Shown here one piece after another: positions 35,950-52,827 of a stretch of DNA of 64,000 nucleotides. Where the stretch lies: positions 380 to 64,379 of IMG/VR virus record IMGVR_UViG_3300045988_141926; one strand, 5' to 3'. This DNA comes from a virus. Numbering within the stretch: the first letter of the stretch is position 1; every line of letters begins with the position of its first letter. The position numbers were made by a program, and so were the translations under genes. The notes beneath the pieces are model-generated. The model did no database searches. It was not told where the DNA came from and saw only the letters and a list, made by a program, of their open reading frames with translations.

Positions 35950-35977
35950 GGGAGGTTTTTTGTTGCCCTAAGATTGT

Positions 35978-36780: not shown

Positions 36781-36863
36781 ATAGGTTATTTTTGAAAAAA
36801 CCTCTTGACAAATTACCCCAAGTGTGCTACAATGATTACAGTAAAACAAAGGAGGACGATACA

Positions 36864-37100: not shown

Positions 37101-37113
37101 GGAGGAAATGACA

Positions 37114-37302: not shown

Positions 37303-37405
37303 AAAAATAGGGCGCAAGCCCTATTTTTTTTTTGAAAAAACTATTGACAAATCCCGCAACAGATGTTATAATGAATACAGAAATTAAGAAATGAGGTACA
37401 TAAAA

Positions 37406-37540
37406 ATGAAAAAAAGCACACAGGGTTGGTACAAATTCGCGGACGGCACACAAGCATGGTTTCACGGTCTGAGCGCGCAGGAGCGCAAGGTTGAGGAACG
37501 CAAGCACGGCAAAGTCGTGAGTTTCATCCCCACAGTATGA
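37406..37540 (+). CDS. Hypothetical protein, 44 aa
   Basis: Promoter with a conserved leader, SD GAGG, and a terminator. Confidence 0.45.
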   Translation: MKKSTQGWYKFADGTQAWFHGLSAQERKVEERKHGKVVSFIPTV

Positions 37541-37648
37541 CAGGGCGCAAGCCCTGTTATTTTTTTTTATTTTTTTTGAAAAAACTATTGACAAACACAA
37601 ATAAGCGTGTTATAATAAATACAGAAATTAAGAAATGAGGTATACAAA

Positions 37649-37837
37649 ATGAAGAACATCTATGAAATCGAGAACATCATCGACGGAATCTCCGCTGATG
37701 ACTGGGCTGGCATTTGTAATCTGATGGACTACTACTATCAGTCGAATTTCTCTGCTGACGCTGAACAGAGACTGGCAAGGGCAATCGCTCCTTACGGCTT
37801 GACCGTTGAGGAAATTCTGACCTGGGACGCTGAGTAA
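37649..37837 (+). CDS. Hypothetical protein, 62 aa
   Basis: Near-identical promoter and leader to the 37406 unit. Confidence 0.5.
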   Translation: MKNIYEIENIIDGISADDWAGICNLMDYYYQSNFSADAEQRLARAIAPYGLTVEEILTWDAE

Positions 37838-38067
37838 GCGTCCTATTTTTTTGCTGTTGGATTGTTAAAATTTTAACGAGCATCGTCGCGCTCATCAGGC
37901 ACGTGGCGCTCCGAAATATTATACCACAGCAGTCCACCAGTTGTCAAGAGAAAAATGCGAAAATTTCGCACAAAATTCGCCATCCCGATTTGTATAGTCT
38001 GCCAATAGACAAAATGAAATAAGCGTGTTATAATGAATACAACAAAACAACAAAGGAGATACACACT

Positions 38068-38376
38068 ATGATTAACATTCGTTCTATCCGCAAGTTGGGC
38101 AACAATGACGGGCTGACGCTCAAACTGGGCAAAAAGGTAAACTACAAATCCGGTTGGCAGGTTGCCACTGAGGGCATCGAGTGTAAGACCGCACAAGAAG
38201 CCATTGACGCGGTGAGAGACTACGGCGGCAACTGTGGCGTGTGGTTCAGTGAGGGCGTGTATTACATCGACAAAAGCAAGCGCGTGGCGACAAAGCGTGA
38301 AGCTATGGAAATCGGCAAAGCGTGTAATCAAATTTCCGTGCTGAAATGGGCGACTATGACGCTTGCCTACTGCTAA
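38068..38376 (+). CDS. Hypothetical protein, 102 aa
   Basis: Promoter, SD AAGGAG, and terminator at 38383-38406. Confidence 0.55.
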   Translation: MINIRSIRKLGNNDGLTLKLGKKVNYKSGWQVATEGIECKTAQEAIDAVRDYGGNCGVWFSEGVYYIDKSKRVATKREAMEIGKACNQISVLKWATMTLAYC

Positions 38377-38486
38377 AATAATAGGGCGAAAGCCCTATTA
38401 TTTTTTGAAAAAATTTTGAAAAAGGTATTGACAAATCCCGAAATAGGTGCTATAATTAAACCATCAAAAGAGAGGAGCTAAACGCT

Positions 38487-38678
38487 ATGACAAACTTTGA
38501 ACAGTATCTCGAAAACCTGATGGGCATGAAGAAAGCGGAAATCATCAACGAGGGCATCACCTGGGGCATCTGGGCGAACACCGAGGGCAACAAAGCCGAG
38601 CTGATGAAATGGAAAAAAGTTCTGCTGGCGCGGTGTCTCGCCGATAGGCTGGAAAGGCTGGAAAGGCGGGGCTACTAA
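38487..38678 (+). CDS. Hypothetical protein, 63 aa
   Basis: Promoter, SD GAGGAG, and a terminator. Confidence 0.5.
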   Translation: MTNFEQYLENLMGMKKAEIINEGITWGIWANTEGNKAELMKWKKVLLARCLADRLERLERRGY

Positions 38679-38744
38679 GACAAGGGCGAAAGCCCTTGTT
38701 TTTTTTATATGGCATTATGCCCATAATTCGGTTGAAAATTTTGG

Positions 38745-38940
38745 TCATTTTGCCTATTGACATTCTGCCCCATTTGTGTTATACTCGGTCGCGCGTCCAC
38801 GGCCCTGATGCGCGGAAATTCCATTATACCACAGCCCAGCCAATTTGTCAAGCATTTTGTGTTCGGTATTTTCAACAATTTTTTATCCCGAAATTTGTGC
38901 AATTTGACGGTTGACAACGCCCAGTAGGTGTGCTATACTT
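38745..38940. promoter_or_regulatory. Convergent-promoter palindromic module, copy 1
   Basis: Rightward TTGACA-17-TATACT. GC hairpin. Leftward TTGACA-17-TATAAT on the minus strand (plus-strand attata-N17-tgtcaa). Third rightward promoter TTGACA-17-TATACT. Confidence 0.6.
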
Positions 38941-38968
38941 ATACTATCAATTAAAGGAGGTCATTCAA

Positions 38969-39145
38969 ATGGCTACTATCGCAATCCTCGCAATCCTCGC
39001 CCTCGCTGGCTTCGCTGGCGTTCAGTGTGTCGGCGGGTATATGGTCTATCGTCAGACGCACGACTGGCACTTCCTCGTTGGCTCTATCCTATATGGCGTT
39101 GCCTGTATCGGTCTGGTGCGCTTCGTGTTCAATATGGGATGGTAA
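38969..39145 (+). CDS. 58-aa membrane protein with two transmembrane segments
   Basis: SD AAAGGAGG. Confidence 0.5.
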   Translation: MATIAILAILALAGFAGVQCVGGYMVYRQTHDWHFLVGSILYGVACIGLVRFVFNMGW

Positions 39146-39146
39146 T

Positions 39147-39470
39147 ATGGAAAACTACACTATGTCGAACCATCTGACAGAGGAGCGGGCTAACCGGCTC
39201 GCCCTCTTACAGGAATATCTCGGATATTCCGACCGCGTGATGATTGAGGTCATCGACCAGCGACAGACCGCTCGACTGCGTTTGCTCTCGACTGGTATTA
39301 TCCTCGTGCTGGACTTATATGAGAATTTCATCATCACCGCATACCCCGCAACTTTTGAACGGGCTGTCGCTATATACAAGAGTGCTGGCAAAAACCGTCT
39401 GCCCCAGCAGTTGGTTAAGCGCATCCGCAAGAATGAGGAACGCCACCCGGAATTTTATGTGGTAAAGTAG
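39147..39470 (+). CDS. Hypothetical protein, 108 aa. The only TAG-terminated ORF in the GC-rich block
   Basis: ORF. A TGA lies 5 codons after the TAG. Confidence 0.5.
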   Translation: MENYTMSNHLTEERANRLALLQEYLGYSDRVMIEVIDQRQTARLRLLSTGIILVLDLYENFIITAYPATFERAVAIYKSAGKNRLPQQLVKRIRKNEERHPEFYVVK

Positions 39471-39541
39471 AAAATTGGGGCTTGACAACAAGCCCCATTT
39501 CTGCTATAATGAGTATAACAAAGCAAGGGAGGACGAAAAAA

Positions 39542-39868
39542 ATGTCTGATGTAATTATCGCTGGTCTGCTTATGGCTGGTCTGATGGGTCTGCCTGTTGG
39601 TCTGATTATCGCCATTAGCCGCGACCACTGGTGGAGTAAGGTACTGGCTCTCATTATTTCCTGTGCTATCTTCTTCGGCTTCGGCTGTGCGTTCGGGCAA
39701 GAGAGTGTCAATGACCGCGACACATTTAACAACGGTGTATGTGTCAAGTGTGGTGGCGAATATCGTTTCAGTTCCTCTACTCGCTACCGTATGAGCGAAA
39801 CATTTTACTACACCTGTCAAGACTGCGGTTGGACAATCGAAACCAACTGCTTGATGAACAAAAATTAA
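39542..39868 (+). CDS. Membrane-anchored Zn-ribbon protein, 109 aa
   Basis: N-terminal transmembrane segment, CxxC-N25-CxxC. The promoter's -35 lies in a terminator loop. Confidence 0.5.
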   Translation: MSDVIIAGLLMAGLMGLPVGLIIAISRDHWWSKVLALIISCAIFFGFGCAFGQESVNDRDTFNNGVCVKCGGEYRFSSSTRYRMSETFYYTCQDCGWTIETNCLMNKN

Positions 39869-39937
39869 GATAGGGGCTTGACAAACAAGCCCTTATCTGT
39901 TATAATAGATAATACCAAGAGAAAGGAGAATATCAAA

Positions 39938-40168
39938 ATGGAATTTATTGAGTCCCCTATCTATGTCAAGTTGAGTGATGAAGAGCGCAATTCACTCCAT
40001 GAGGTTTATGTCATTCTGAATGACCTTGTAAACGCCGCCGAAGAGAATGACTGCGAGTATGTGGGCAATCCGTTGACTGGTGATGGCTATGGGCGGTTTG
40101 ATGTGAGCCAAGCCGCTGAAATTTGCCGAGTGTTCGCACCTGCTGAAAAGTTAGAAATCAGTAATTAA
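39938..40168 (+). CDS. Hypothetical protein, 76 aa (paralog A)
   Basis: Promoter and SD. Confidence 0.5.
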   Translation: MEFIESPIYVKLSDEERNSLHEVYVILNDLVNAAEENDCEYVGNPLTGDGYGRFDVSQAAEICRVFAPAEKLEISN

Positions 40169-40182
40169 AGGAGGGAAACAAA

Positions 40183-40410
40183 ATGGAAGTTATTAAAGCC
40201 CCCATCTATGTCAAAATGACAGAGAAAGAGCGGAAAACCCTGCGCGATGCCTATGACATTCTGAATGAATTGTATAACGTCATCGCCGATAATGACTGCG
40301 ACTATGTGGGCGATACTTGCGGGAATACCTATGACAGAGTGGACGTCGCGCTTACGGCGAATGTGCTTCAAATGCTTGCCCCCACTGAAAAAGTGGAAAT
40401 CGGTAAATAA
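40183..40410 (+). CDS. Hypothetical protein, 75 aa (tandem paralog B)
   Basis: About 45% identical to the 39938 product. Confidence 0.5.
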   Translation: MEVIKAPIYVKMTEKERKTLRDAYDILNELYNVIADNDCDYVGDTCGNTYDRVDVALTANVLQMLAPTEKVEIGK

Positions 40411-40498
40411 AAAAATGTGGGAGAAATCCCACATTTTTTATTGACAACAACCAGTAGGTGTGCTATAATGTAGACAATGAAACAAGGAGGTAAAAACA

Positions 40499-40705
40499 AT
40501 GACTGCATTTGAAATTCGAGAGGAACTGGCGAACCGCTACAATTTAGAAATCCGCAATGTCTGCTGTTATCACTGTCAATACTGGGGCTATAACTGCGGT
40601 AAGGTGCTGAACTCTCAGTGTGAGAGCCGATGCACCAAGAGAATGAAAGACTGGACGTGGGCAAGCCAGTATTGCCGTGGCTTCGTTCCGAAATCGGGAA
40701 AGTAA
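40499..40705 (+). CDS. Cys-rich protein, 68 aa
   Basis: Promoter and SD. Confidence 0.45.
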   Translation: MTAFEIREELANRYNLEIRNVCCYHCQYWGYNCGKVLNSQCESRCTKRMKDWTWASQYCRGFVPKSGK

Positions 40706-40729
40706 ATCAAATAAAAAGGAGATACACTT

Positions 40730-40978
40730 ATGAAAATCATTCTCATTATTTACATCATTGGTATTGTTCTCTACTGGCTGGGTATCGCAAGCATCATTTC
40801 GACTATGAAGAAAAACAAGGAACAGGCGCAAGAAGTATTCAAGAACCGGGGTGAAAGCAAGCGCAGTCCGTTCTCTAACTGGTTGACCGTTATCACCGGC
40901 TCAATCATTCCGATTTTTCATTACGCCGTAGCATTCCTCTACATTTTCAAACCGGATTTTATTTTTGAAAAGGAATAA
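40730..40978 (+). CDS. Membrane protein, 82 aa
   Basis: Two hydrophobic segments. Confidence 0.45.
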   Translation: MKIILIIYIIGIVLYWLGIASIISTMKKNKEQAQEVFKNRGESKRSPFSNWLTVITGSIIPIFHYAVAFLYIFKPDFIFEKE

Positions 40979-41034
40979 AAATCATTTGGGCTGGATGAAC
41001 AAAAATCCAGCCCAATTTTTGTATAATTTTCCAC

Positions 41035-41170
41035 TTGACATTTTCGGCCGCGCGCTCACGAATGTGGCGCCCGGCATTTTTGTCAATAGGTATACTTCAC
41101 AAATTTTTCGCCGCAATTTTGTGCATTTTGACGATTGACTTCTATCCCGTAATGTAGTACAATGGCTATA
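41035..41170. promoter_or_regulatory. Degenerate copy of the convergent-promoter module (copy 2)
   Basis: Retains the GC hairpin, the leftward -35 tgtcaa and the third promoter (TTGACT-17-TACAAT). Palindrome arms are lost. Confidence 0.4.
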
Positions 41171-41192
41171 CTGAAACAAGGAGGTATGTATT

Positions 41193-41411
41193 ATGGATTT
41201 AAAGCAAGCGTATCAGGCGGTTTTCGCAGACCTGCGTGAATGCCCTATGTTCCACGGGCGGTATGACGCCATCAATGGCAATCCCTACTTTATGTCCGGC
41301 ATTGAGACGGTTATGGAGGTAATCGCCAATCGCGCCTATGATGATGATTTTGCCGAGAAGTTCTCCAATGAATTTACTGACAATATGTTAAGGAGTAGAG
41401 AAAGTGTTTAA
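41193..41411 (+). CDS. Hypothetical protein, 72 aa
   Basis: ORF with an SD. Confidence 0.5.
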   Translation: MDLKQAYQAVFADLRECPMFHGRYDAINGNPYFMSGIETVMEVIANRAYDDDFAEKFSNEFTDNMLRSRESV

Positions 41412-41580
41412 TATTGTATTGGCACTAATCGCCGTAGGCGGGTGCGCGTGGGCGATTATCCGCTCTATTCTCTGGCGAAATGAAAAATACCTATCCACCG
41501 AGGAGCAAATCCGCGAAATGATGGATGAAACGTCTATTTCCACTGAAACGCTGTGGAATCTGTTTGACAGACTAAACTGA
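41404..41580 (+). CDS. Membrane-anchored 58-aa protein (GTG start)
   Basis: Overlaps the upstream stop. Confidence 0.3.
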   Translation: MFNIVLALIAVGGCAWAIIRSILWRNEKYLSTEEQIREMMDETSISTETLWNLFDRLN

Positions 41581-41594
41581 AAGGAGTAAGAACA

Positions 41595-41966
41595 ATGTTT
41601 GATTTTCAGAAACTGACGCTCAAAAAATGGGCGCGCAATTTCCTCATTCTGTGTGGTTTTATCCTGCTGGTGTATGGTATGTTCAAATCCACATTCGTGC
41701 TGTATGCGGCTGTCGCCATTCTGACCCTGACTATCGCGGGCGCGTGCGCGTATACTCTGATAAGTTCTATCCGCTGGGATTGGCGGTTGCGTGGCAAGCT
41801 GACAGAGGACGAGTATAAGGCATACCAATCCTGTGATAGATGGTTTGGTTTTCAAGATGATAAATACCTGCCGACTGATGAACAAATTGTATGGATGGCT
41901 GAAAACACAAACAATTCCTGTGATACCTTATGGAGTATGTATAATAAACTGACAGAGGGGCATTAA
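41595..41966 (+). CDS. Membrane protein, 123 aa
   Basis: SD GGAG, two transmembrane segments, and a terminator. Confidence 0.5.
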   Translation: MFDFQKLTLKKWARNFLILCGFILLVYGMFKSTFVLYAAVAILTLTIAGACAYTLISSIRWDWRLRGKLTEDEYKAYQSCDRWFGFQDDKYLPTDEQIVWMAENTNNSCDTLWSMYNKLTEGH

Positions 41967-42112
41967 CGCCCCTCTTGTCAGATTTAGTTCTGACTAACTG
42001 CACGGAACAAAAAACTAATCCTGTGAGAATTTAACTACGGCAAAAATTTTTCTTGACATTTTCAAATAAATGTGGTAGTATTATAATAGAAATTAAGAAA
42101 GGAATTGATACT

Positions 42113-42313
42113 ATGAACATCCCCTCTAAGCTGAAACAAGTTGCTAATGAGTTGGAGCAACTGTCCATCGAAATCGCCGCAGAAAAGAAAAACCTGTCCA
42201 ATAGCGAGGACAAGCAAGCCGCTCAAAATTTGAGTGATGATTTGTTTGAAATCCAGTCTCACCTGCGCACATCTATGTACTGGCTGGCGGAAGCTATGTT
42301 CGGGGAGGATTGA
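42113..42313 (+). CDS. Hypothetical protein, 66 aa
   Basis: TTGACA promoter, SD. Confidence 0.5.
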   Translation: MNIPSKLKQVANELEQLSIEIAAEKKNLSNSEDKQAAQNLSDDLFEIQSHLRTSMYWLAEAMFGED

Positions 42314-42789
42314 TGACTATGAACGCAATTATCCTATTCATTGTCTGCACCGCTGTGAATGTGGTGCTGTCCACCATCAAATCCATTCTCACGGTCAAGG
42401 GCAACAAGTGGGTAGCCGCTGGTATCAATGCGCTGACCTATGGCTTCTATTCCTATGTCATTATCCTGACCAACATTGACGGCGTTTCTACGCTGGCAAA
42501 GATGGGCATTACCGCCGCCTGTAATTTCATCGGCGTGCTGGCGGTCAAATGGGTGGAGGAGTTGGCGCGCAAGGAAAAATTGTGGAAGATTGAAATGACT
42601 GTCCCCACAAAGTATCGTGCCGCTGTTGATTTTGACCTGCGAGACATTCCCCACTCATACATTGAGATTAGCAACAAACACACGTTATTCAATTTCTATT
42701 GTGCCACGCAAGCCGAGAGCAAAAAGGTCAAGGACATTGTGGCGCAGTATGGCGCAAAATATTTCGTAGCAGAAAGCAAAAATCTGTAA
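42310..42789 (+). CDS. Membrane protein, 159 aa
   Basis: Four predicted transmembrane segments and a soluble C-terminus. Confidence 0.5.
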   Translation: MMTMNAIILFIVCTAVNVVLSTIKSILTVKGNKWVAAGINALTYGFYSYVIILTNIDGVSTLAKMGITAACNFIGVLAVKWVEELARKEKLWKIEMTVPTKYRAAVDFDLRDIPHSYIEISNKHTLFNFYCATQAESKKVKDIVAQYGAKYFVAESKNL

Positions 42790-42855
42790 AATAGGGGTTG
42801 ACAAATCAGCCCCTCTGTGTTAGAATGGTATCATCAAATAAGGGAGGACAACAAA

Positions 42856-43005
42856 ATGGAAATGATTAAAGTTTTCAATGACCACACTGGCGAAATCCTT
42901 GAAAAGACGTTCGTAGACCCCGCGGACGCGGACGACTTCGAGTTCATTCTCGACTTCCTTGAAGCGAGATACGAACGCTACCACAACGGCGAACAAATCT
43001 ACTAA
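42856..43005 (+). CDS. Hypothetical protein, 49 aa
   Basis: The promoter's -35 lies in a terminator loop. SD AGGGAGG. Confidence 0.4.
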   Translation: MEMIKVFNDHTGEILEKTFVDPADADDFEFILDFLEARYERYHNGEQIY

Positions 43006-43018
43006 GGAGGGCGCGACA

Positions 43019-43216
43019 ATGGAAATCAAAGATGTGTACTACAATGTTGAGTGGTGGGGCATAACCACTTGGGGCGAACGCTTCACTAATAGCGAGTGGT
43101 TCAAGGACGAAAACGAAACTCTGTCGTTCATCGCAAATGACCTGGCAAATGACCCGCTTGTTCGTGGAGCAACCTTCACCACACACAAAACCATCGTATT
43201 TAAGAGAGGTGAATAA
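43019..43216 (+). CDS. Hypothetical protein, 65 aa
   Basis: SD GGAGG. Confidence 0.45.
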   Translation: MEIKDVYYNVEWWGITTWGERFTNSEWFKDENETLSFIANDLANDPLVRGATFTTHKTIVFKRGE

Positions 43217-43217
43217 A

Positions 43218-43427
43218 ATGATTACTATTCTGATAATGGTTATTGCCCTTGGCATTTCGTTCCTGTTTACTGCTGGGCTGGTCTGGCTTCTCTGCTGGCT
43301 TCTCCCTATGATTGGCATCGCGTCCATCGGCTCTATCGCCATCGTGTTTTCGTGGAAACTGGCGTTGGTCATTTGGCTCATTATCGCACTCCTACGCTCT
43401 ATTTTCAGCATCACTGTCAAGAAGTAA
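43218..43427 (+). CDS. Membrane protein, 69 aa
   Basis: Hydrophobic. Confidence 0.45.
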   Translation: MITILIMVIALGISFLFTAGLVWLLCWLLPMIGIASIGSIAIVFSWKLALVIWLIIALLRSIFSITVKK

Positions 43428-43469
43428 TAATTGAAAAATCTCCCAAATTTAGGAGATTTTTTTTGTTCA

Positions 43470-43690
43470 TTTTACCTATTGACAAACGCCCCTATTTGTG
43501 CTATACTCAGCCGAGCGCCCACGGTCCTGGCGCTCGAAATTTCCATTATACACCCTGCCAGCAATTTTGTCAATAGGTAAATTGAACAAATTTGACCAAA
43601 CACACATCCCGAAAGTTTGTGCAAAATAACCAACGAAAATTTGACAATTCTAAAAATTTTTTGTATAATAATGTCAATGACATAGATGGG
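43470..43690. promoter_or_regulatory. Convergent-promoter palindromic module, copy 3
   Basis: Same architecture with an 8-bp GC stem. Confidence 0.6.
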
Positions 43691-43704
43691 AGGATGGTCT
43701 AAAA

Positions 43705-44448
43705 ATGGACTATTACGTTTACATAACAACAAATAAAATTAACGGCAAACAATACATTGGGTAGCACAAAGGACGCCCAGACGATAACTATTTAGGTAGT
43801 GGAACAACTATACTAAAAGCAATCAGCAAGTATGGCAAGGAGAATTTTACTAAAAGTGTTTTGTGTTTTTGTGAAACAAGAGAAGAAGCCGACGCAAAAG
43901 AACGAGAATACATCCAATTATACAACGCAGTAAATGATGATAATTTTTATAATAATGCGGAAGGTGGCACAGGTGGAGACGGCTGGCGCAGTTGTCAAAG
44001 ATGGCTGGAACAACATCCAGAAGAAGCGCAAGCCATGTATAAACGAAATGGGGAACATTTGCGGAAATGGTGTGATACTCATCCAGAAGAATACAAAGAA
44101 AAATGTATTAAGCCAATGTTAGAAGCAAGTCATAAGCGATTAAAAGAAAATCCTGAACTCGTTAAACAACAAGTAATAAGATTAAATCAGGCAAAAGAAA
44201 AATGGCAACAAGAACATCCAGAAGAGCACCAAGCACAAGTAAATGAATGGCGAAAGGCTGGAAGTATTGCTAATAGTAAAGCAGTAATTTGTTTAACTAC
44301 TAATCGTGTATTTGAGTCTCAATCAGCGGCGGCTCGATACTATGGCGTTCCACAAAGCAACATTAGTAAATGTTTGAAAGGAGAGCGTAAAAGCGCGGGA
44401 GTAGACCCTGATACGGGTGAAAAATTATTTTGGGAATTTGTAAAATAA
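43705..44448 (+). CDS. GIY-YIG homing endonuclease with a NUMOD-like C-terminal helix-turn-helix. In-frame TAG at ~43762
   Basis: YVYITTNKINGKQYIG-TAG-HKG matches the GIY-YIG motif. C-terminal region ...QSNISKCLKGERKSAG. Confidence 0.7.
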
Positions 44449-44512
44449 CTCTTGACAAATAGGAGAATAGGCGTTATAATGTAGATACAATAAAACGAAG
44501 GAGACAAAAAGT

Positions 44513-44959
44513 ATGACTATTTACCTCGATCTCGATGGGACGGTGATTGATTTTTACGGCGTCCCCAACTGGTTGGAGTGCCTCGAAGCACAGGACAGCA
44601 CACCATATCGTGTGGCAAAGCCCCTTGTGCATCTGTCCACCCTCGCCCGCTATCTGAACCGCTTACAGGCGCGGGGCTACAATATCGGCATCATCAGTTG
44701 GCTGTCCAAGAGCGGAACGGATAAGTTCAACGCCGAAGTAGCCGAGGTCAAGCGGGAATGGCTGGCAAAGCATCTCCCCAGCGTTCAGTGGGACGAAATC
44801 CATATTGTCCCCTATGGCGTCCCCAAGTCCAACTGTGCGACCTGCCCCAACGCGATTTTGTTCGATGATGAACAGCGAAATCTCAATGAGTGGACGGCAA
44901 ACACCCACAATATGGCATACAACGCCAACCTGCTTATGGAAATCCTGCGAAACCTGTAA
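44513..44959 (+). CDS. HAD-superfamily 5'-nucleotidase-like phosphatase, 148 aa
   Basis: DLDGTV motif I and a C-terminal FDDE. Confidence 0.55.
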   Translation: MTIYLDLDGTVIDFYGVPNWLECLEAQDSTPYRVAKPLVHLSTLARYLNRLQARGYNIGIISWLSKSGTDKFNAEVAEVKREWLAKHLPSVQWDEIHIVPYGVPKSNCATCPNAILFDDEQRNLNEWTANTHNMAYNANLLMEILRNL

Positions 44960-45071
44960 AAAAAATAGCAAATAGGGGTTGACAATCTCACCCCTATTTG
45001 CTATAATATGTAATGTAATTAAGGTATGGGACACGATGGTAAACCCAACCAAGAGAAAAGGAGAATGAACA

Positions 45072-45728
45072 ATGAAAAATATCTACTGCACGCTGGACAC
45101 TGAAACGGTAGGCGGCGCGGCTCACCCCACGGGAATGTATAATGTGGGCGCGATTATCCACGACCGCAAGGGCGAAATCCTTGCCACCACTTCCCTGCTG
45201 GTGATGGAGCATTATGACGAAATCGCCACCGATGGCTATGCCAAGAAGAATTTTCCGGTATATGCCGAACGGCTCAAAGCTGGTGAAATCTCCGCTATCG
45301 CCACGGAGCGCGAAGCCTATGAGGTAATCAAAAACCTGTGCGACCATTACGGCGTTCGCTATGTGATGGCATACAATTCCGGTTTTGACTTCTGCAAGAC
45401 CTGTTTCCGCGACCTGCTGGACACTTTCGAGTTCATCGACCTGTATCTCATGGCACTGGAAACTATCACCCACAAAAAGTCCTATGCGGACTATTGCCGA
45501 GAAAATGGCAAGCGTTCCAAGAATGGCAAGACCTGTGCAACCTCTGTCGAAGCGGTGTATGGTTATCTCCACGGCAATCCTGACTTTGAGGAAGAACACA
45601 CCGCCCTGTCTGACGCTATGCAGGAAATGGAAATTTTCCTTGCTTGTCAGAAGATGCACAAGCGATACACCAAGAACGTCCACGCATGGGACGCGCCCTT
45701 TGAGGTAAAATGTTTTCCCAAGTTTTGA
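45072..45728 (+). CDS. DnaQ-like (DEDDh) 3'-5' exonuclease, 218 aa
   Basis: Exo I LDTET, Exo II YNSGFD, Exo III HTALSDA. Confidence 0.65.
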   Translation: MKNIYCTLDTETVGGAAHPTGMYNVGAIIHDRKGEILATTSLLVMEHYDEIATDGYAKKNFPVYAERLKAGEISAIATEREAYEVIKNLCDHYGVRYVMAYNSGFDFCKTCFRDLLDTFEFIDLYLMALETITHKKSYADYCRENGKRSKNGKTCATSVEAVYGYLHGNPDFEEEHTALSDAMQEMEIFLACQKMHKRYTKNVHAWDAPFEVKCFPKF

Positions 45729-45795
45729 GATTGGGGCTTGACAGCCCCTTTCTCATGTGGTATAATGGCTATACTAAGACAAGGAGGTAAGCGAA

Positions 45796-46008
45796 ATGCC
45801 TAAGCAGGTTCTTTTCAAGAGCGACCATTCAGATGGCGTTCAGGCAGGTATTCAGGTAGATAATGGAAATGTTATCTGTGCCTGTTGTGGTGGAGTATTC
45901 GAGGGCGAGGAGACTACCATTCTCCACGAGTTCGACTATTGGGTTGACTTTTCCGAATGGATTGGCGACCCTGACCTGACTGAATACCGCAAGCACGACA
46001 CCCCGTAA
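45796..46008 (+). CDS. Hypothetical protein, 70 aa
   Basis: Promoter, SD. Confidence 0.5.
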   Translation: MPKQVLFKSDHSDGVQAGIQVDNGNVICACCGGVFEGEETTILHEFDYWVDFSEWIGDPDLTEYRKHDTP

Positions 46009-46122
46009 AAAAAGTTTGGAATGGGGGTTGACAACGCCCCCATTCCATGCTATAATAACATTACAAATTCAAGGTAGGGGAAACGATGGTAAGCCCCACC
46101 AATAGAAAAGGAGAAAAAAACT

Positions 46123-46656
46123 ATGAAAGCTCGCTATGCTAACCTCAGAAATTTCAACCGCACGGTCAAGACCTACAAGTGGCTGGTAGACCTGTTCGGA
46201 AACAAGGAGTTCACTTCCGAGGACTTCTCCAAGGCAAAGCACGACTACCGGCGGTACACCTACAATTCCCTGTCGTTCCTGCGGGATGAGGGTATCATCA
46301 AGGTGGTACGCACCGAACAGACCACCAAGGAAATCAAGCTCGACCCGTGGGACGCGGAAAGCTGGATGATTGACAAGAATGGCAACGCCCTGATGACCGA
46401 GTACAACTGGATGCGTTTGCCGGAAGTGGCACAGTCCGCTCTGCTGGCTCTGAATGGTCAGGACTTCCGCGTTGAGCGCAAGGACACCAAGACCGTGGAA
46501 AAGGAGAAGCTTATTTACACGGTCAATCCCGCTGGTATGTTGAACTGGCGCAAGGGCTATGGGCGTCTGTTGGCTATGAGAGCTGACGCGCTGGCGGGCG
46601 AAATCGTCAGACTGAACGAAAAGCGGGACGCATTCCTTGCTTGTCAGATGGACTAA
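46123..46656 (+). CDS. Hypothetical protein, 177 aa
   Basis: Conserved structured leader. Confidence 0.55.
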   Translation: MKARYANLRNFNRTVKTYKWLVDLFGNKEFTSEDFSKAKHDYRRYTYNSLSFLRDEGIIKVVRTEQTTKEIKLDPWDAESWMIDKNGNALMTEYNWMRLPEVAQSALLALNGQDFRVERKDTKTVEKEKLIYTVNPAGMLNWRKGYGRLLAMRADALAGEIVRLNEKRDAFLACQMD

Positions 46657-46689
46657 AAAAATGAGGGGATTTTCCCCTCATTTTTTGTG

Positions 46690-46885
46690 CATTTTTACCT
46701 ATTGACAAATGCGCCTGGGTGTGGTATAATGGCCGGCCGATTTCGCGCGTCTCGGCCGGAATTCACCATTATACACCCCGTCAGCAATTTTGTCAAGAGT
46801 TTTTTTACACAAATTTTTTTATTTATTTTTCCCGAAACTTGTGCAGTCTGACTATTGCAATCTGCGCTCACCTATGGTACAATAC
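46690..46885. promoter_or_regulatory. Convergent-promoter palindromic module, copy 4
   Basis: TTGACA-17-TATAAT, GC hairpin with an 8-bp stem, leftward attata-N17-tgtcaa, third promoter. Confidence 0.6.
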
Positions 46886-46985
46886 ATAATGTCAAGAGGG
46901 GACAGCAAGTTGCTTCTCGGGGGAGCCACGCTGGCGGGTGTGATAACTCGGTAACTGACCCGCATTTCCCCTCTTGACAATCTTC
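46886..46985 (+). ncRNA. Small non-coding transcript 1
   Basis: The 5' GUCAAGAGGGGA pairs with a 3' UCCCCUCUUGAC. The 3' arm is the next promoter's -35. Confidence 0.45.
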
Positions 46986-47007
46986 GTCAAAGGTGCTATA
47001 ATGGGTA

Positions 47008-47100
47008 GTGTCAAGAGGGGAACGGCACGGCAGATGCGTCTAATGTGTCGCTTGTGTAGACAGGTTTCAGAAATTTGAAAAAATTTCAAAAAACCTCTTG
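47008..47100 (+). ncRNA. Small non-coding transcript 2
   Basis: Same 5' motif. Closing stem caagagg/cctcttg. Confidence 0.45.
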
Positions 47101-47138
47101 ACAATCCCCAGCACCCGTGCTATAATTGATAATGTCAA

Positions 47139-47400
47139 GAGGGGAACAGCCCCACCCAAGAAATCCGCGGGTCGCGAACCGTGCGAGAGTAAAGGAAGTA
47201 AGCCCTATACCAGCGCAGTAAAGCCTGAGCATGGAGCGGAAAGTGAGCAATTTGTGAGCAAGGTACAGACCGGAACTTCTAACCGGACTGCGACGCAATA
47301 ACATGGCAATACTCTTATCCGTATTCCGGGGTTGTAAGTCGTTGTGAATACTTGTGGAGCGTTCCCCTGTTGGCACTATCAAAAAAAATCAAGAATTTTG
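47139..47400 (+). ncRNA. ~260-nt non-coding transcript 3
   Basis: Same 5' motif. 3' GUUCCCC complement, then an A-run. No SD-preceded ORF. Confidence 0.4.
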
Positions 47401-47495
47401 AAAAAAAGTCTTGACAATCCCAGCGCAAGCTGTTATAATAGATAATGTCAGGAGGGCAAAGCCCTCAAAACCAAATGGAGAAAGGAATTGATACT

Positions 47496-47876
47496 ATGGC
47501 TAACACTAACACCACCACCCGCAAGCCCACCAAGCGCGATAATTTCACCGCCCTGCTGAAACTGTCCGAGGTCAAGGCTGACCCCAAGCTGGTGGAGTTC
47601 ATCACCCACGAAATCGACCTGCTCGACCGCAAGAACACCGTGGACAAGAAGCCCACCAAGACCCAGCAGGAGAATGAGGTCATCAAGACCACTGTCCTGT
47701 CCGCTATGGAGCGCGACCGCCTGTACTCCATCAGTGAGATGCTCAAAGAGTTCCCTGTCTGCAAGGACATGAGCAATCAGAAGCTGTCCTCCCTCGTTCG
47801 GCAGATGGTGCTGGACAAGCAGGTGGAGCGCGTGGAGGATAAGCGCAAGGCGTTCTTCCGCAAGGTGAGCGAGTAA
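47496..47876 (+). CDS. Cassette gene A1, 126 aa
   Basis: ELLDRKNTVDKKPT motif. The mRNA has a 5' stem-loop. Confidence 0.55.
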   Translation: MANTNTTTRKPTKRDNFTALLKLSEVKADPKLVEFITHEIDLLDRKNTVDKKPTKTQQENEVIKTTVLSAMERDRLYSISEMLKEFPVCKDMSNQKLSSLVRQMVLDKQVERVEDKRKAFFRKVSE

Positions 47877-47929
47877 ACCGCCCAAGGGTGGGGAGAAATC
47901 CCCACCCTATCCCCGAAAGGAGTAAGCGC

Positions 47930-48286
47930 ATGAATGAGCGTATTGCCGACCTTATGCGAAAGCTGGATTGCACCGAAGCCGAAGCCAAGGATATTATTGT
48001 CCAAGATGCTATTATCGACAAGGGCGGCAATCCGTTTCCGCTGACCGAGGAACAGGAAAAGGCAAGCAAGAAAGCGCGTGGAGTAGGACGCCAGCCGACC
48101 GCATACAAGTTCGCACCAAGAGAAAGAAAGGCTAATCTCACGAAGCAGGGCATTATCACCTTGCTGACCGAGACACTGACCACATACGGCGCGACTGACC
48201 TGAACGTGAGCAACGCGGAGCGCGAATTTTTATTCACGCTTGATGGAACAAAATACAAGGTTGTGCTGTCGTGTCCGCGCAAGTGA
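47930..48286 (+). CDS. Cassette gene B1, 119 aa, basic
   Basis: PTAYKFAPRERKAN motif. Confidence 0.55.
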   Translation: MNERIADLMRKLDCTEAEAKDIIVQDAIIDKGGNPFPLTEEQEKASKKARGVGRQPTAYKFAPRERKANLTKQGIITLLTETLTTYGATDLNVSNAEREFLFTLDGTKYKVVLSCPRK

Positions 48287-48317
48287 GGGAGAGAAATCTC
48301 CCTCATTTTTTTTGTGT

Positions 48318-48520
48318 ATTTTGACTATTGACAAATCCGGGCGCGCGTGGTATAATTCGGTCGCGCGTCCACGTATGTGGCGCTCGAAATTTCTATTATA
48401 CACCCCACTGGCAATTTTGTCAAGCGTTTTTTTGCACAAATTTCAAAGATTGAAAATCCCGTTTTTTGTAGGTATTGCCTATTGTAATTCTCCTGTAATG
48501 TGTTATAATGATGATACTGA
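48318..48520. promoter_or_regulatory. Convergent-promoter palindromic module, copy 5
   Basis: Same architecture. Third promoter TTGTAA-16-TATAAT. Confidence 0.6.
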
Positions 48521-48535
48521 AAGGAGCGATGAACG

Positions 48536-49219
48536 ATGGAGTTTCCGAGAGTTCAGGATTTTATCCTGATTATCCAGCAGGCGGTATCTGAAAAGCCTGT
48601 GCGGGTCAGAAGTGCTGACAGACTATCCCGCGCTATCCACCGAGAATATCCTAATGTCAAGATAGCTACCAGCAACGGCGCAAGCAAGGAATGTCTGGTA
48701 TTCCCTGATTTGGGCTATGTTCTCAAATGGTCTACGGAGACGCGGGACGCAGAGCGCGAAGTGGCTGTGTATAAGAAAGCCGTAGAAGCAAACCTCGCGG
48801 ATTTTTTCCCCGCCACCGAGTTGGCTGGCTACATTGTTCCCCCGCGTAAGTGTGATGACCCTATCGCGTTCACCGCTCAACAGATTATCACCAACAGCGC
48901 ACACAAAATCATGTGGAATGAGGGCGGGATAAAAACTCGTCTCTTGCGTATCGCAAAGACTGTCCCCGACTGTCGCATCAAGCAGATTGAGCGGCAGTTC
49001 CGCAAAGCCGACCTCAATGGCTATGGGCGTGAGCTGGACGGACTGTGGGCGAAAGTTGCCGTTTCTATCTACGGCAAGCGCAAGGTTATCGCCCTCTGTG
49101 AGTTCGTTAAAAAGTATCACATCAACGACCTCCACGGCTCAAACATCGGCTACATTGGCATTTCTCCTGTTATCCTCGATTTCTCCGGCTATGGCGTCTG
49201 TGATGGTTTAGAGTTTTGA
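48536..49219 (+). CDS. Protein-kinase-like fold phosphotransferase, 227 aa
   Basis: HINDLHGSNIGY and ILDFSGYG, plus a lysine in YVLKW and a glutamate in EREVAVYKK. Confidence 0.45.
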   Translation: MEFPRVQDFILIIQQAVSEKPVRVRSADRLSRAIHREYPNVKIATSNGASKECLVFPDLGYVLKWSTETRDAEREVAVYKKAVEANLADFFPATELAGYIVPPRKCDDPIAFTAQQIITNSAHKIMWNEGGIKTRLLRIAKTVPDCRIKQIERQFRKADLNGYGRELDGLWAKVAVSIYGKRKVIALCEFVKKYHINDLHGSNIGYIGISPVILDFSGYGVCDGLEF

Positions 49220-49264
49220 AAAAAACTCTTGACAAACAGCCCCGCCTGTGCTATACTAACATCG

Positions 49265-49612
49265 TGAGGTGAGAAAAATGAAATGGCGATTGTATCGTCC
49301 CCCTTAGTAGTCAATCATAGTTTGATTAGATAGTTTAATGATTGATTATATTTATACCCCAGCCAAGATGGAGTTTAATAGAGTGTTTGTCCCACTCAAT
49401 AATTTCTTCTCAACCGCCATCTTGAACCCCTCGTTAGAAATTGGGACTGGGTACGAAGTTCTAACCACATTCACCGCGTGCCAAGAAAGACCATCTATGT
49501 GGGCATTGCGCCCGTCTGATTAGGTCTGCTGTGTAGAAGTGGGCTGGCTGTCCGGACGGCTGGCGAACATCAACAGGGGAACCAGCGTAGTAGCCAACTA
49601 CGCTGGTTTATT
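49265..49612 (+). ncRNA. ~340-nt non-coding transcript candidate
   Basis: TTGACA-17-TATACT upstream and a terminator at ~49575-49612. Only a 61-aa ORF with no SD. Confidence 0.35.
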
Positions 49613-49617
49613 TTTGT

Positions 49618-49810
49618 GTATTTTGCCTATTGACAAATGCGCTCAAATGTGGTATAATGGGTCGGGCGCTCACGAACGTGGCGCCCGAAATTTCCATTAT
49701 ACCACGCGGCACAAATTTTGTCAAGTGTTTTTTTGCACAAATTTTAGATGTTGAAAATCCCATTTTTTGTGAGTATTGACTATTGTAATTTGCCCAAGGG
49801 TGTGGTAATA
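49618..49810. promoter_or_regulatory. Convergent-promoter palindromic module, copy 6 (canonical)
   Basis: Perfect consensus on both strands: 12-bp arms gtggtataatgg/ccattataccac and hairpin cgggcgc-N11-gcgcccg. Third promoter TTGACT-18-TGgTAATAT. Confidence 0.65.
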
Positions 49811-49988
49811 TATAATTGTTCCAAGGGAGAGGGCGAGAGCCTCCGGCGGGGCGTGTACCTTAAAAAAATTCCACAAATCCGAAAAAAAGTCTTGACAAGG
49901 CTTCGGATATGTGTTAGAATATAGATGTTCCAAGAGGGAAACAACAATAAGGTGGGCGACACCTAAAAACGCAGAAAGGGTTGATACT

Positions 49989-50408
49989 ATGACTAACACT
50001 ACTTCCTCTGTGCGCCTGACCAAGCGCGACTACTTCACCGCCATTCTGTCCAAGGTGGATATGGACGCCACTTATGACATTCCCAAGGGCGATGCCACTG
50101 TCAAGGTTTCCGGTGCTGATGTGGCGGGCTTCCTGAACCACGAGCTGGAACTGCTCGACCGCAAGAACACCGTGGACAAGAAGCCCACCGCCACCCAGCT
50201 GGCAAACGAGGGTATCAAGGCTGACATCAAGGCGTTCCTGGACGCCCACAAGGGCGAGAAGTACACCGTCTCCGCTCTGATGAAGTCTGTCCCCGCTATC
50301 GCCGATGCGTCCAATCAGAAGGTTTCTTCTTTGGTGCGTCAGATGGTCATTGACGGTCTGGCAGAGCGTATCGAAGATAAGCGCAAGGCGTATTTCACCG
50401 CCAAGTGA
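49989..50408 (+). CDS. Cassette gene A2, 139 aa
   Basis: Shares ELLDRKNTVDKKPT and QKVSSLVRQMV with A1. Confidence 0.55.
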   Translation: MTNTTSSVRLTKRDYFTAILSKVDMDATYDIPKGDATVKVSGADVAGFLNHELELLDRKNTVDKKPTATQLANEGIKADIKAFLDAHKGEKYTVSALMKSVPAIADASNQKVSSLVRQMVIDGLAERIEDKRKAYFTAK

Positions 50409-50472
50409 GACAAGAGGGGGGGGAGATAACCTCTCCCCCTCTCTCCCCTAAAATCTGAAAAGGCGGTGTTTT

Positions 50473-50871
50473 ATGGCTGACATTTCCAAAACCGAATGGC
50501 TGAAAAACGCTATGGCGAAAATGGGCTGGACTGCCGATGAAGCGGAAGCCGTGTGGAACTCTGACCGAGAAATCGACAAGGGTAAGAAACAGGATTTTGA
50601 CCTGTCGAAAGAACAGCTTAAAATCGCCCAAAAATTCGCCAAGACTGGCACACGCAAGACCCCCACCGCATACAAATTCACCACAAGGGAACGCAAGGCA
50701 AATCCCACAAAAGCGGCTATTATCGCTGAATTGGCAACATTTTTGACCGAAAATAGCGAAAATGCCTGCGAAAATGTGGAAATTACCAACAAAGAGCGTC
50801 AAATTGCGTTCAAAATCGGTGAAAACTCCTATGAACTGACGCTTGTGCAGAAGCGCAAGCCGAAAAGTTGA
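50473..50871 (+). CDS. Cassette gene B2, 132 aa
   Basis: Shares PTAYKF-RERKAN with B1. Confidence 0.55.
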   Translation: MADISKTEWLKNAMAKMGWTADEAEAVWNSDREIDKGKKQDFDLSKEQLKIAQKFAKTGTRKTPTAYKFTTRERKANPTKAAIIAELATFLTENSENACENVEITNKERQIAFKIGENSYELTLVQKRKPKS

Positions 50872-50921
50872 GAAAATGGGGGAGAAATCCCCCATTTTCC
50901 CCGGAAATCGAGGAAAAAAGT

Positions 50922-51266
50922 GTGAAAAACAAGGAATTTTTGTATGTTGGACACTATTATGATGAAAATGGCGTCTACATTCTGAAAATAGGCACGACTA
51001 ACGACTTAAAGCGCAGACAGCGAGAGCATACACGAAACTACAAGAAATCGCCTGTTTACCGTCTACCGAAAACTGGCAAGTTCATTTACGATTTTTCGCT
51101 ACCGCTCTCCAAGTACAATACTCTACGCTACGAGGACAAAAACCGTGAACGCTGGCAAAAACTGGGATACGGCGAGTTTGTGAGAAATGACAGATTTGCG
51201 TGTCCTGTGAAGCCGAAATCTGTTGAAATTACCATTCGTCGAACTTACCAAATCGCTCTCGATTGA
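50922..51266 (+). CDS. Small GIY-YIG domain protein (~115 aa, GTG start)
   Basis: FLYVGHYYDENGVYILKIGTTNDLKRRQREH. Confidence 0.5.
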   Translation: MKNKEFLYVGHYYDENGVYILKIGTTNDLKRRQREHTRNYKKSPVYRLPKTGKFIYDFSLPLSKYNTLRYEDKNRERWQKLGYGEFVRNDRFACPVKPKSVEITIRRTYQIALD

Positions 51267-51289
51267 GGGCGATTTTTTTTTATTTAATT

Positions 51290-51440
51290 TGACTATTGAC
51301 AACGCCCTCTGACTGTGGTATAATGGGTCGGGCGCTCACGGATGTGGCGCCCGGCATTTTTGTCAATACACATTTTCAACAATTTTTCCGGCGAAAGTTT
51401 GTATAAATTGACTATTGCATTTTGTCCCGAAATGCGCTAT
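51290..51440. promoter_or_regulatory. Degenerate copy of the convergent-promoter module (copy 7)
   Basis: TTGACA-17-TATAAT and a hairpin. The 3' arm is deleted. Confidence 0.45.
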
Positions 51441-51491
51441 ACTATAAACAATCTGAGGGAGCTGGAACCCACCAACAGCACGGAGGCATCT

Positions 51492-52100
51492 ATGAATAAG
51501 AGCCAGTTTTTTGACCACGAAATCGAGTTCATTCAGTCCGAGGATTTGCGCTCATTCGTGCGCTATTACTTCGATTGTATCGTTCCCGACTATTTCTGGA
51601 CTATCGGCGCGAGTTCTTCCGGCAAGTTCCATCCGGCTATGAGCCAAGGCGAGGGCGGTTTGGTACGCCACACTAAGGCGGTTGCGTGGTTTTGTGAGGA
51701 ATTGCTCCGCATGAGCCAGTGGGCGTATCTCACTGACGAGCGCAAGGACTACGCAAGAGTTGCCTGTCTGCTCCACGATACAGCCAAGTATGGTTTACAC
51801 GAGTTCGACAAGGAGTTGTACCCCAAGCACGGGGAAATGGCGGCTGACCAAGTACGCCGTTCGTGGCTGGTCTTTTTCGAGAGCGACTGCCCCTATGAGT
51901 TGACGCAAGCCATCAAGTCCCACATGGGTCAATGGACTACCGACAAGGCGAACAGACCTTTCACTCCTATTGATAGGTTGGTACACATGGCTGACTATGT
52001 GGCAAGCCGAGCGTTTATCGACATTCCGGCAATCAACGCTGACTATAACGACAAGGCGGAGTTAAACCAGATTGTGCCTGACCTGCCGTGGGAAGATTAA
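51492..52100 (+). CDS. HD-domain phosphohydrolase, 203 aa
   Basis: H...HD...D motifs. Confidence 0.55.
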   Translation: MNKSQFFDHEIEFIQSEDLRSFVRYYFDCIVPDYFWTIGASSSGKFHPAMSQGEGGLVRHTKAVAWFCEELLRMSQWAYLTDERKDYARVACLLHDTAKYGLHEFDKELYPKHGEMAADQVRRSWLVFFESDCPYELTQAIKSHMGQWTTDKANRPFTPIDRLVHMADYVASRAFIDIPAINADYNDKAELNQIVPDLPWED

Positions 52101-52134
52101 TTTGTTAAGGGTGGAGAAATCCACCCTTAATTTT

Positions 52135-52440
52135 TGTTCATTTTACCTATTGACAAATTGGGCCAGGTGTGGTATACTAAAAGGGGAGGTACAACGGGCC
52201 GAGCGCGGGCGCTGCGGTCCGAATTCCCGATCTGTACCCCCATATGGAAAATTTTCCGTAATTCTAGCGGCCTTCATATGCGCCCATATTTTCCCAAAAC
52301 CCGAGGCACCGCTCGGTACCCATATGCCGCCCGGTTTGACATAAAAAAAAATTTATGTTATAATGATAAAAAAAACCATTTTTTTTCTCACTTGACTTTT
52401 AAAAAAATTTTTTGTATAATATGTATATACAAAATGAAAA
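52135..52440. promoter_or_regulatory. Divergent copy of the convergent-promoter module (copy 8) with a 3x CATATG repeat, followed by two AT-rich promoters
   Basis: TTGACA-17-TATACT, then a GC-rich insert in place of the palindrome, then AT-rich promoters before the 52453 gene. Confidence 0.4.
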
Positions 52441-52452
52441 GAGGTTATTTTA

Positions 52453-52827
52453 ATGAATAAGAACGATATTCTGACGCGCTTAATGAATGGCGAGAGCGCT
52501 GAGGATATTGCTAAGGAAATGACTGCAATGCTGAATGACGCCACTAAGGCATATGCTGACCAGAAGAAGGACAAGGAAAAGATGGCCCGAGCGGAAGCGG
52601 TTGCCGATGCTATCAACGACTATGCGGCCTATATTGGCTACAAGGGTGCAGAGTTGAAGGGCGAGGACGTCATTAAGATGATGGACAGTTTCTTGAAGTT
52701 CTATAAAGACCTTCACAATTTCAAGATTGAGATTCCCGGTTTCCGTTTTGAGACGAGAACTGATAAGCCCACCAAGAAGGGCAAAACCGTAGATGAAATC
52801 CTCAACGACTGGATTTCTCGCATTTAA
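52453..52827 (+). CDS. Hypothetical protein, 124 aa
   Basis: SD AAGAGG. A long hairpin terminator lies at 52838-52900. Confidence 0.55.
   Translation: MNKNDILTRLMNGESAEDIAKEMTAMLNDATKAYADQKKDKEKMARAEAVADAINDYAAYIGYKGAELKGEDVIKMMDSFLKFYKDLHNFKIEIPGFRFETRTDKPTKKGKTVDEILNDWISRI

Follow-up and report, generated by a model that had tools for sequence, protein, structure and literature searches.

Putative structured RNA modules with paired ends inside an early promoter stack of an uncultured gut phage

In a 64,000-nucleotide stretch of viral DNA (positions 380 to 64,379 of IMG/VR record IMGVR_UViG_3300045988_141926, hereafter the window), four sigma-70/sigmaA-type promoters stand in tandem before gene A1, with three units that lack an open reading frame (ORF) lying behind them. 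The 5' motif heading these units covaries with the extended -35 sequence of the next promoter, two of the unit families analysed in depth have folds conserved through compensatory changes, and units are exchanged among related phages. We hold, with moderate confidence and on the evidence of sequence comparison, that the units are early structured RNA modules with clamped ends, inserted in a host-type promoter stack that feeds gene A1.

Layout of the promoter stack and its units

The source of the window is an uncultured human-gut phage with a reassigned stop codon (TAG), the genome of which shows a sharp compositional split between a TAG-recoded, low-GC late region and an early region in the standard code. 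The late region consists of minus-strand genes (bases 1-34000; GC 24-40%, mostly 24-34%), and its long frames show up only when TAG is read through. Read-through takes the count of stop-to-stop frames with 200 codons or more from 6 to 17 and extends the longest one from 380 to 2763 codons. The early region (bases 36000-52500; GC 43-50%) carries small plus-strand genes and is dense with consensus promoters. Between 40 and 58 kb, there are 82 promoter-like sites, 18 of which are perfect TTGACA-17-TATAAT, against 36.8 +/- 5.1 in shuffled sequences. At 35966-36620, where transcription and GC skew diverge, the 20-bp palindrome ATTGTTAAAAATTTAACAAT occurs six times, with three of the copies at 28-bp spacing; these palindromes look like an operator or iteron array.

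The promoter stack occupies 46855-47440 (Table 1). Its four promoters are spaced by 119, 124 and 313 bp, and the predicted transcripts each start with (A)AUGUCAAGAGGGGAAC. Promoter 1, the weaker one, comes after a face-to-face promoter module, an arrangement seen again at 48482 and 49783 (repeat family D11), while an A-rich context is found upstream of nearly all CCTCTTGACA promoters (repeat families D3 and D4). No terminator-like site was found on the plus strand from 46686 to 48281, so primary transcripts probably continue into gene A1, and both A1 and B1 would receive all the read-through transcription from the array. With all four promoters placed ahead of the first terminator, the locus has the organization of a tandem early promoter stack of the T7 A1-A3 type.

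Table 1. Features of the promoter stack and its surroundings (window coordinates)
Feature	Position	Strand	Description
Promoter 1	46855..46883	+	TTGCAA-17-TACAAT, TG before the -10; weaker
Unit 1 (U1, "alpha" RNA, ~94 nt)	46887..46980	+	Arms 46890-46902 / 46967-46979, 13-bp closing stem
Promoter 2	46974..47002	+	Perfect TTGACA-17-TATAAT; -35 plus upstream CCCCTC = unit 1 3' arm
Unit 2 (U2, "beta" RNA, ~98 nt)	47006..47103	+	Arms 47009-47018 / 47094-47103, 10 bp
Promoter 3	47098..47126	+	Perfect TTGACA-17-TATAAT
Unit 3 (U3, "gamma" RNA, ~246 nt)	47130..47375	+	Arms 47133-47147 / 47361-47375
A-rich linker	47376..47410	+	UP-element-like region of promoter 4
Promoter 4	47411..47439	+	Perfect TTGACA-17-TATAAT; drives gene A1 mRNA
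Gene A1 leader	47443..47495	+	Degenerate 5' motif UGUCAGGAGGGCA, local 5' hairpin, then Shine-Dalgarno
Gene A1	47496-47876	+	
Gene B1	47930-48286	+	
First intrinsic terminator 3' of array	48281..48308	+	12-pair stem, T run
Second, smaller stack (paralogous cassette)	49783..49988	+	Weak promoter, ~80 nt ORF-less spacer, promoter 49892-49920

The three ORF-less units behind these promoters differ in how they end. U1 terminates in the full 13-nt complement UCCCCUCUUGACA, which is at the same time the -35 region of promoter 2. Its interior forms two hairpins, the second with an 18-nt loop (GUGAUAACUCGGUAACUG), and the unit folds at -44.8 kcal/mol (z = -5.26). In U2, the terminal complement, CCUCUUGACA, is 10 nt long and coincides with the -35 region of promoter 3, whose UP-like region is supplied by an A-rich stretch following the hairpins of the unit (fold -34.2 kcal/mol, z = -4.78). 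The complement in U3, GUUCCCCUGUUGGCA (47361-47375), is 15 nt long and offers 13 Watson-Crick pairs, one G-U pair and one G-G mismatch; it lies 36 nt 5' of the next -35 and is not a promoter itself. In U3, conserved domains on the 5' side (AAGAAAUCC..GAGAGUAAAGGAAGUAA) and on the 3' side flank a central hairpin that varies, and the unit folds with a terminal stem at -81.8 kcal/mol (z = -2.4). In the variant present in the window, the closing helix grows to ~20 bp with bulges. A first-pass annotation of this DNA had proposed that the 3' complement of every unit is also the next -35. This is true of U1 and, over 10 nt only, of U2, but U3 has its own copy of the sequence outside any promoter. The absence of a plausible ORF from U3, also proposed there, agrees with our finding no conserved ORF in this unit of ~246 nt.

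Exact copies of the motif TGTCAAGAGGGGA are found at 46890, 47009 and 47133 on the plus strand and at 46967 on the minus strand, with two-mismatch copies at 47446 (+) and 47363 (-). Seven matches were counted against 0.96 expected, a number reached in none of 100 shuffles. Each plus-strand copy lies 5-6 nt 3' of a -10 hexamer; by the usual spacing rule, transcripts would start 0-2 nt upstream of UGUCAAGAGG. The first-pass annotation had also listed two related leaders. That of gene A1, at 47446 (UGUCAGGAGGGCAAAGCCCUC), carries a two-mismatch copy of the motif and, as had been noticed, a local stem-loop GAGGGC-AAA-GCCCUC (47452-47466), whereas the leader at ~49926 has only AAGAGGGAAAC in common.

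The smaller stack at the end of Table 1 precedes gene A2, whose leader contains GUUCCAAGAGGGAAAC. The regions 47496-48286 and 49989-51266 are paralogous gene cassettes, each behind its own promoter stack, in which A1 and A2 are ~75-80% identical in blocks. The proteins of both cassettes, A1 and B1 included, have no significant match in Pfam, PHROGs or PDB.

Several other elements of the early region combine promoters with RNA structure. A five-copy module (38735-38871, 43457-43593, 46680-46816, 48307-48443 and 49608-49744) is built of a bidirectional terminator followed by two perfect promoters placed face to face ~38 bp apart, with a GC-rich hairpin between them. Its minus-strand promoter would read ~105 nt into the terminator, which makes the product a candidate antisense small RNA, and the hairpin at 46733-46767 shows 100% identity across four relatives. 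At promoters 39469, 39865, 42785, 44966, 45725 and 46008, the -35 hexamer is inside the loop or stem of a GGGGC...GCCCC hairpin (families D5 and D8), so that the promoter overlaps a terminator-like hairpin. The mRNA leaders at 45010-45060 and 46060-46110, together with leaders in the related loci L040 and L060, have a common hairpin with a conserved loop, AAACGAUGGUAA, just 5' of the Shine-Dalgarno sequence; the stems differ yet pair (GGGG/CCCC, UGGG/CCCA, GAUGAAG/CUUCAUU), and this hairpin may be a translational operator. Finally, at 49229-49612 a promoter (49229-49257) and a strong terminator (49579-49609) surround ~350 nt of partly AT-rich sequence without a convincing ORF. This segment is kept in the related loci L036, L038 and L039 and includes AUCAACAGGGGAAC, a complement of the U3 3' arm.

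Covariation of the 5' motif with the downstream arm

The motif has two possible partners, since it can pair backward across its own promoter, as a 42-nt-wide hairpin that might just as well be a DNA operator, or forward with the next promoter, which would close the unit. For the forward pairing, 61 distinct pairs of a 5' arm and its own 3' arm were compared. In these, 81.5% of cells are paired and 17 cells are changed on both sides, against 7.7 +/- 2.0 in shuffles, none of the 500 shuffles reaching 17; the covariation score is higher than in all 500 shuffles, and slid controls score much lower. Arm positions 1-10 were chosen by the motif search, and only the shuffle-controlled covariation therefore counts as evidence for the stem. 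For the backward pairing (81 distinct pairs), there is no excess, the observed values being reached by 386, 422 and 450 of 500 shuffles. A hairpin across each promoter was rejected as a selected structure because this pairing is no better than in shuffles.

Individual substitutions illustrate the forward pairing. The combination TGTCAAGGGG...CCCCTTGACA is found in three unrelated families, beside GAGG/CCTC units of the same contig, and GAGGGAA occurs with TTCCCTC where other units pair GAGGGGA with TCCCCTC. Single changes in the 5' arm (A-to-G or C-to-U) all leave a G-U pair. The first units of arrays have the motif even though the -35 context of their own promoter differs, and 14 of the 15 positions of the U3 3' arm pair with the 5' arm despite having no promoter function. 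Together, these observations support the conclusion that the 5' motif covaries with the extended -35 of the next promoter (CCUCUUGACA), not with its own -35, and forms an RNA stem that closes the unit. The long terminal stem joining the 5' and 3' ends, which had been predicted from the window by itself, is thus supported by compensatory changes across unrelated unit families. Covariation confined to the downstream arm is as expected of base-pairing in RNA, and it speaks against a DNA operator or a protein-binding consensus common to the units.

Over its first 10 nt, the motif is complementary to CCTCTTGACA, the extended -35 consensus of this phage family. Conservation of the 5' end can consequently be explained without a protein, by a pairing partner that is under constraint because it serves as a promoter, and the common recognition factor invoked in the first-pass annotation is not needed. 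The GGGRAAC tail of the motif is nevertheless conserved even where it is unpaired. This conservation, along with the use of the motif in 5' hairpins of mRNA leaders (such as the one at 47452-47466), suggests that the motif has a further, general function in promoter escape or in stabilising the 5' end. In these phages, AACCTCTTGACA is the usual context of promoters, whereas the 5' motif stands at the head of only some transcripts. The feature that comes next after a motif-bearing promoter is a promoter in 72 cases and a gene in 44, compared to 228 and 500 for other promoters, an excess (odds ratio 3.6, Fisher p = 5e-10) whose p-value is optimistic because the sequences are related.

Conserved folds and module exchange in related phages

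Scans of viral and metagenome collections yielded many gut-phage contigs, 80-200 kb in length, that are related to the window and have arrays of this kind. These arrays are modular, with units swapped in and out; over all fetched loci, 137 distinct motif-headed units fall into 32 sequence families. U3 is present in the window and in all of the related loci L036-L039, U1 in the window, L036, L038 and L039, and U2 in the window, L036, L037 and L038, while two further modules are found only in L037 and/or L038. The presence or absence of a module is independent among genomes that are ~90% identical. Altogether, alpha is represented by eight variants in 14 loci and beta by seven variants in 12 loci.

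Sequence conservation is high inside the units. The interiors of U1 and U2 are 97-100% identical in most close relatives (90% for U1 in L039; 98-100% for U2 in three relatives), and third codon positions of the flanking genes are 70-94% identical in the same relatives. This shows that the U1 and U2 interiors, which change less than the third codon positions of neighbouring genes, are under purifying selection. The proposal of the first-pass annotation that each unit has a promoter of its own is supported, as is conservation of the units.

The alpha family folds in a consistent way. An alignment of seven variants has 26 consensus pairs, four with compensatory changes. The closing stem encloses two hairpins, one variable at its tip (GCUUCUCGGGGGAGC, GCCGAACGGC or CUCGCAAGAG) and the other bearing the 18-nt loop. 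This loop is invariant in six of the seven variants, and the seventh differs by a single U-to-C change.

Gamma is the more widespread family. A search with a 39-nt degenerate pattern retrieved 28 viral and 56 metagenome stretches, representing 58 distinct sequences, of which 36 are long (220-246 nt), 21 short (~141 nt) and one intermediate (~170 nt). Members each have their own promoter, most being directly followed by another promoter, and the downstream gene differs between clades. In a scan of genome collections, gamma was found in only two metagenome-assembled contigs, labelled Treponema and Mollicutes, which are probably mis-binned phage and so point to no host. The RNAalifold consensus of 16 long forms contains 31 pairs, 99.2% of them paired compared to 94.4% in shuffles, and 17 cells are changed on both sides against 4.6 +/- 1.6 (none of 500 shuffles; 0-8 in slid controls), although many of these compensatory changes separate two clades and hence represent few independent events. 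All-against-all column covariation is dominated by the same two-clade split, and we left it out of the evidence. Clearer evidence than the two-clade changes is provided by the central extended hairpin, the tips of which are unrelated in sequence but always paired (UCCAUGcgCAUGGA, GCGGAuacgUCCGC, UUCGGAUuuAUCCGAA, CUGUAUAuuUAUACAG and ACCGG...CCGGU). With compensatory changes in gamma, in alpha and in the closing stems, and with no conserved ORF, the units qualify as structured non-coding RNA.

The sole annotated relative of the phage is Phass-1 ("code 15 clade"), a weak match when the locus and its surroundings were compared to GenBank phage records; the segment 46860-47500 had no match in these records. 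In Phass-1 (OQ749652), motif-headed ORF-less units of the same design as those of the window are seen at locus positions 3245-3306 and 7137-7226. One of them is overlapped on the other strand by an annotated "hypothetical protein" of 55 codons, possibly a spurious gene call. Promoters and non-coding RNA are not discussed in the Phass-1 paper.

Possible roles of the units and comparison with known systems

The units match no known RNA family that we looked for. Against Rfam 15, the whole window gave no hits at the gathering threshold, for 6S, Y RNA/YrlA, pRNA, tmRNA, EAR, RNase P, SRP and self-cleaving ribozymes among others. At E <= 10, the segment 46650-47520 gave ten weak hits, all far below gathering scores (best E 0.066), several of which fall on the terminator hairpin at 46656-46686 and the rest of which are scattered. 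ARAGORN detected no tRNA or tmRNA genes in the window. Judged on unit lengths (94, 98 and 246 nt) and unrelated interiors, the array is not CRISPR-like, its only repeated parts being the promoter and the 15-nt motif. Nor do the units resemble classical sRNA genes, which have an own promoter and an own intrinsic terminator, since each has a promoter but none has a terminator within 46686-48281. A ToxI-like type III antitoxin array is not indicated either, because the units are not identical repeats and their neighbours lack such a match in Pfam or PHROGs. Within the window, no antisense targets of U1-U3 were found, and a search with the complement of the U1 loop found no target.

Known systems share parts of this design. 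In Bacillus phages, the SPO1/SP82 host-takeover module combines a cluster of consensus sigmaA early promoters with conserved Bs-RNase III sites and a polypurine 5' stabiliser, the stems and purine-rich 5' sequences being linked to RNA processing and stability. The window is alike in its dense consensus promoters, small early genes, conserved RNA stems and purine-rich 5'-proximal sequences, but its stems join a transcript start to the next promoter and enclose ORF-less modules, and there is no detectable sequence relationship. Phage RNA anti-CRISPRs, which resemble single CRISPR repeats and have been proposed to work as decoys, are also small, promoter-driven, structured and sometimes several in a row, whereas the units in the window vary in length (94-246 nt) and sequence and have no 28-37-nt repeat. 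The decoy or anti-defence role suggested in the first-pass annotation is neither favoured nor disfavoured by the evidence. A closing helix formed from both ends is seen in 6S RNA, Y RNA (YrlA) and phi29 pRNA, which are abundant and protein-binding, pRNA being made from an early phage promoter. However, the units have no Rfam match and differ in internal architecture, which is multi-branched in gamma. Like gamma, GOLLD, ROOL and HEARO are conserved structured RNAs with covariation that come mainly from phages and metagenomes, but gamma is far smaller, has no sequence relation to them and forms part of a promoter stack. Literature searches for comparable arrays found nothing relevant, and the layout of the array, while well supported, appears not to be described in the literature and sequence databases that we searched.

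Stems at the very ends of an RNA are known to be protective. A 5'-terminal stem with at most 2-4 free nt shields a transcript from 5'-end-dependent decay (by RNase E in E. coli and RNase J1 in Bacillus), and 3' stems block 3' exonucleases. From this protection, we infer the following sequence of events for a host-type early promoter stack whose inter-promoter spaces are filled by independent structured RNA modules. The start of a module, 0-2 nt upstream of UGUCAAGAGG, would pair with the RNA copy of the next promoter's extended -35 (CCUCUUGACA) or, for U3, with the separate copy of this sequence that the unit carries. A 10-15 bp stem would close the module into a panhandle with almost no free 5' end. 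Polymerase, meeting no terminators, would read through the later modules into A1 and B1, and each module would fold once its 3' arm emerges. Cleavage in the A-rich single-stranded linkers and exonuclease trimming to the closing stems may then release stable small RNAs, presumably made in large amounts immediately after infection. These RNAs would most likely bind a host or phage protein or nucleic acid via their conserved loops, with the U1 18-nt loop and the purine-rich joints of U3 as candidate binding parts.

A more specific version of this proposal, which we put forward tentatively, is that the units are terminator-less small-RNA genes, their ends set by pairing of the transcript start with the RNA copy of the next -35, and that they include a gamma class acting on the host. 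The DNA of a promoter could then also provide the 3' clamp of the RNA before it, with recombination at promoters as a possible means of shuffling modules. Gamma could be a new, widespread class of structured RNA (~140-246 nt), expressed early in TAG-recoded gut phages and, for example, titrating a host protein.

The alternative that fares best, while still unlikely in our view, is that there is nothing but a promoter stack. As in T7, several promoters would maximise early transcription of A1 and B1, and the units would be spacers whose A-rich 3' parts work as UP elements and whose 5' motif is either a generic 5' stabiliser or a downstream promoter element. T7 heads its early operon with three strong promoters ~125 bp apart (A1, A2 and A3), and RNA structure defines processed ends. 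Its early promoters and RNase III site R0.3 parallel the window in that strong host-polymerase promoters are placed in tandem into the same genes. The 119 and 124 bp spacings would suit non-overlapping polymerase footprints, no terminator separates the units from A1, and 44 ordinary mRNA leaders are headed by the motif as well. Moreover, in other clades, gene-A homologues are preceded by promoter stacks with minimal spacers (60-75 nt) that contain only a small hairpin and lack the motif, which shows that a promoter stack can exist without RNA modules. However, spacers do not account for unit interiors that evolve more slowly than synonymous sites and keep their folds through compensatory changes, for a 5' motif that covaries with a downstream arm, or for gamma, whose 58 distinct sequences lie upstream of unrelated genes. 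The T7 spacers, unlike those of the window, are not independent, conserved and shuffled RNA modules, and we know of no pairing in T7 between an RNA 5' end and the -35 of the next promoter.

It is improbable that the units are cis-acting leader modules of one long transcript, serving in antitermination (as HK022 put and the Bacillus EAR RNA do), as insulators for the A1 ribosome-binding site, or as double-stranded processing sites of the RNase III type (as in T7 and SP82). Read-through would be expected of such leaders, terminator-promoter junctions, which an antiterminated polymerase would cross, abound in the early region, and the ~20-bp bulged closing helix of the window's gamma is long enough for RNase III. 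Yet 32 families with wholly different sequence and fold are a poor fit to one polymerase-modifying structure, most closing stems have only 10-13 bp, and no Rfam antitermination family was matched.

We regard as very improbable a DNA-level element, in which the inverted repeats TGTCAAGAGG / CCTCTTGACA would be operators shutting off the early promoters, or recombination sites. The repeats do lie on both sides of every internal promoter at a fixed 42-bp centre-to-centre distance, promoter-spanning hairpins fold well (-29.3 and -18.8 kcal/mol), and module shuffling shows that recombination takes place at these repeats. An operator palindrome is nonetheless contradicted by the first units of arrays, which have the 5' motif without a matching upstream arm, and by the motif's covariation with the downstream and not the upstream arm, with compensating pairs that differ inside one genome. 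Lastly, we give next to no credence to encoded micro-peptides (a 14-codon ORF in U1 or U2, or a 98-codon minus-strand ORF across U3): such short ORFs exist and the motif is purine-rich and Shine-Dalgarno-like, but the U1 start codon is lost in L011 and L039, three relatives have TGG in place of the U2 stop, the ATG is 13 nt away from the motif, and single-base indels and replaced segments set the U3 relatives apart.

Returning to the clamped RNA modules, if these RNAs are real and stable, recoded uncultured gut phages give their strongest early promoters to non-coding RNAs, not to proteins. There would then be at least one new family of structured RNA, with dozens of members, open to structural and functional study. 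The arrays would also embody a compact design rule, namely that the -35 of a promoter can clamp the 3' end of an RNA; this rule explains a conserved 5' motif without a protein and would be reusable in synthetic biology. The analysis also brings to light unannotated features of published Phass-type genomes.
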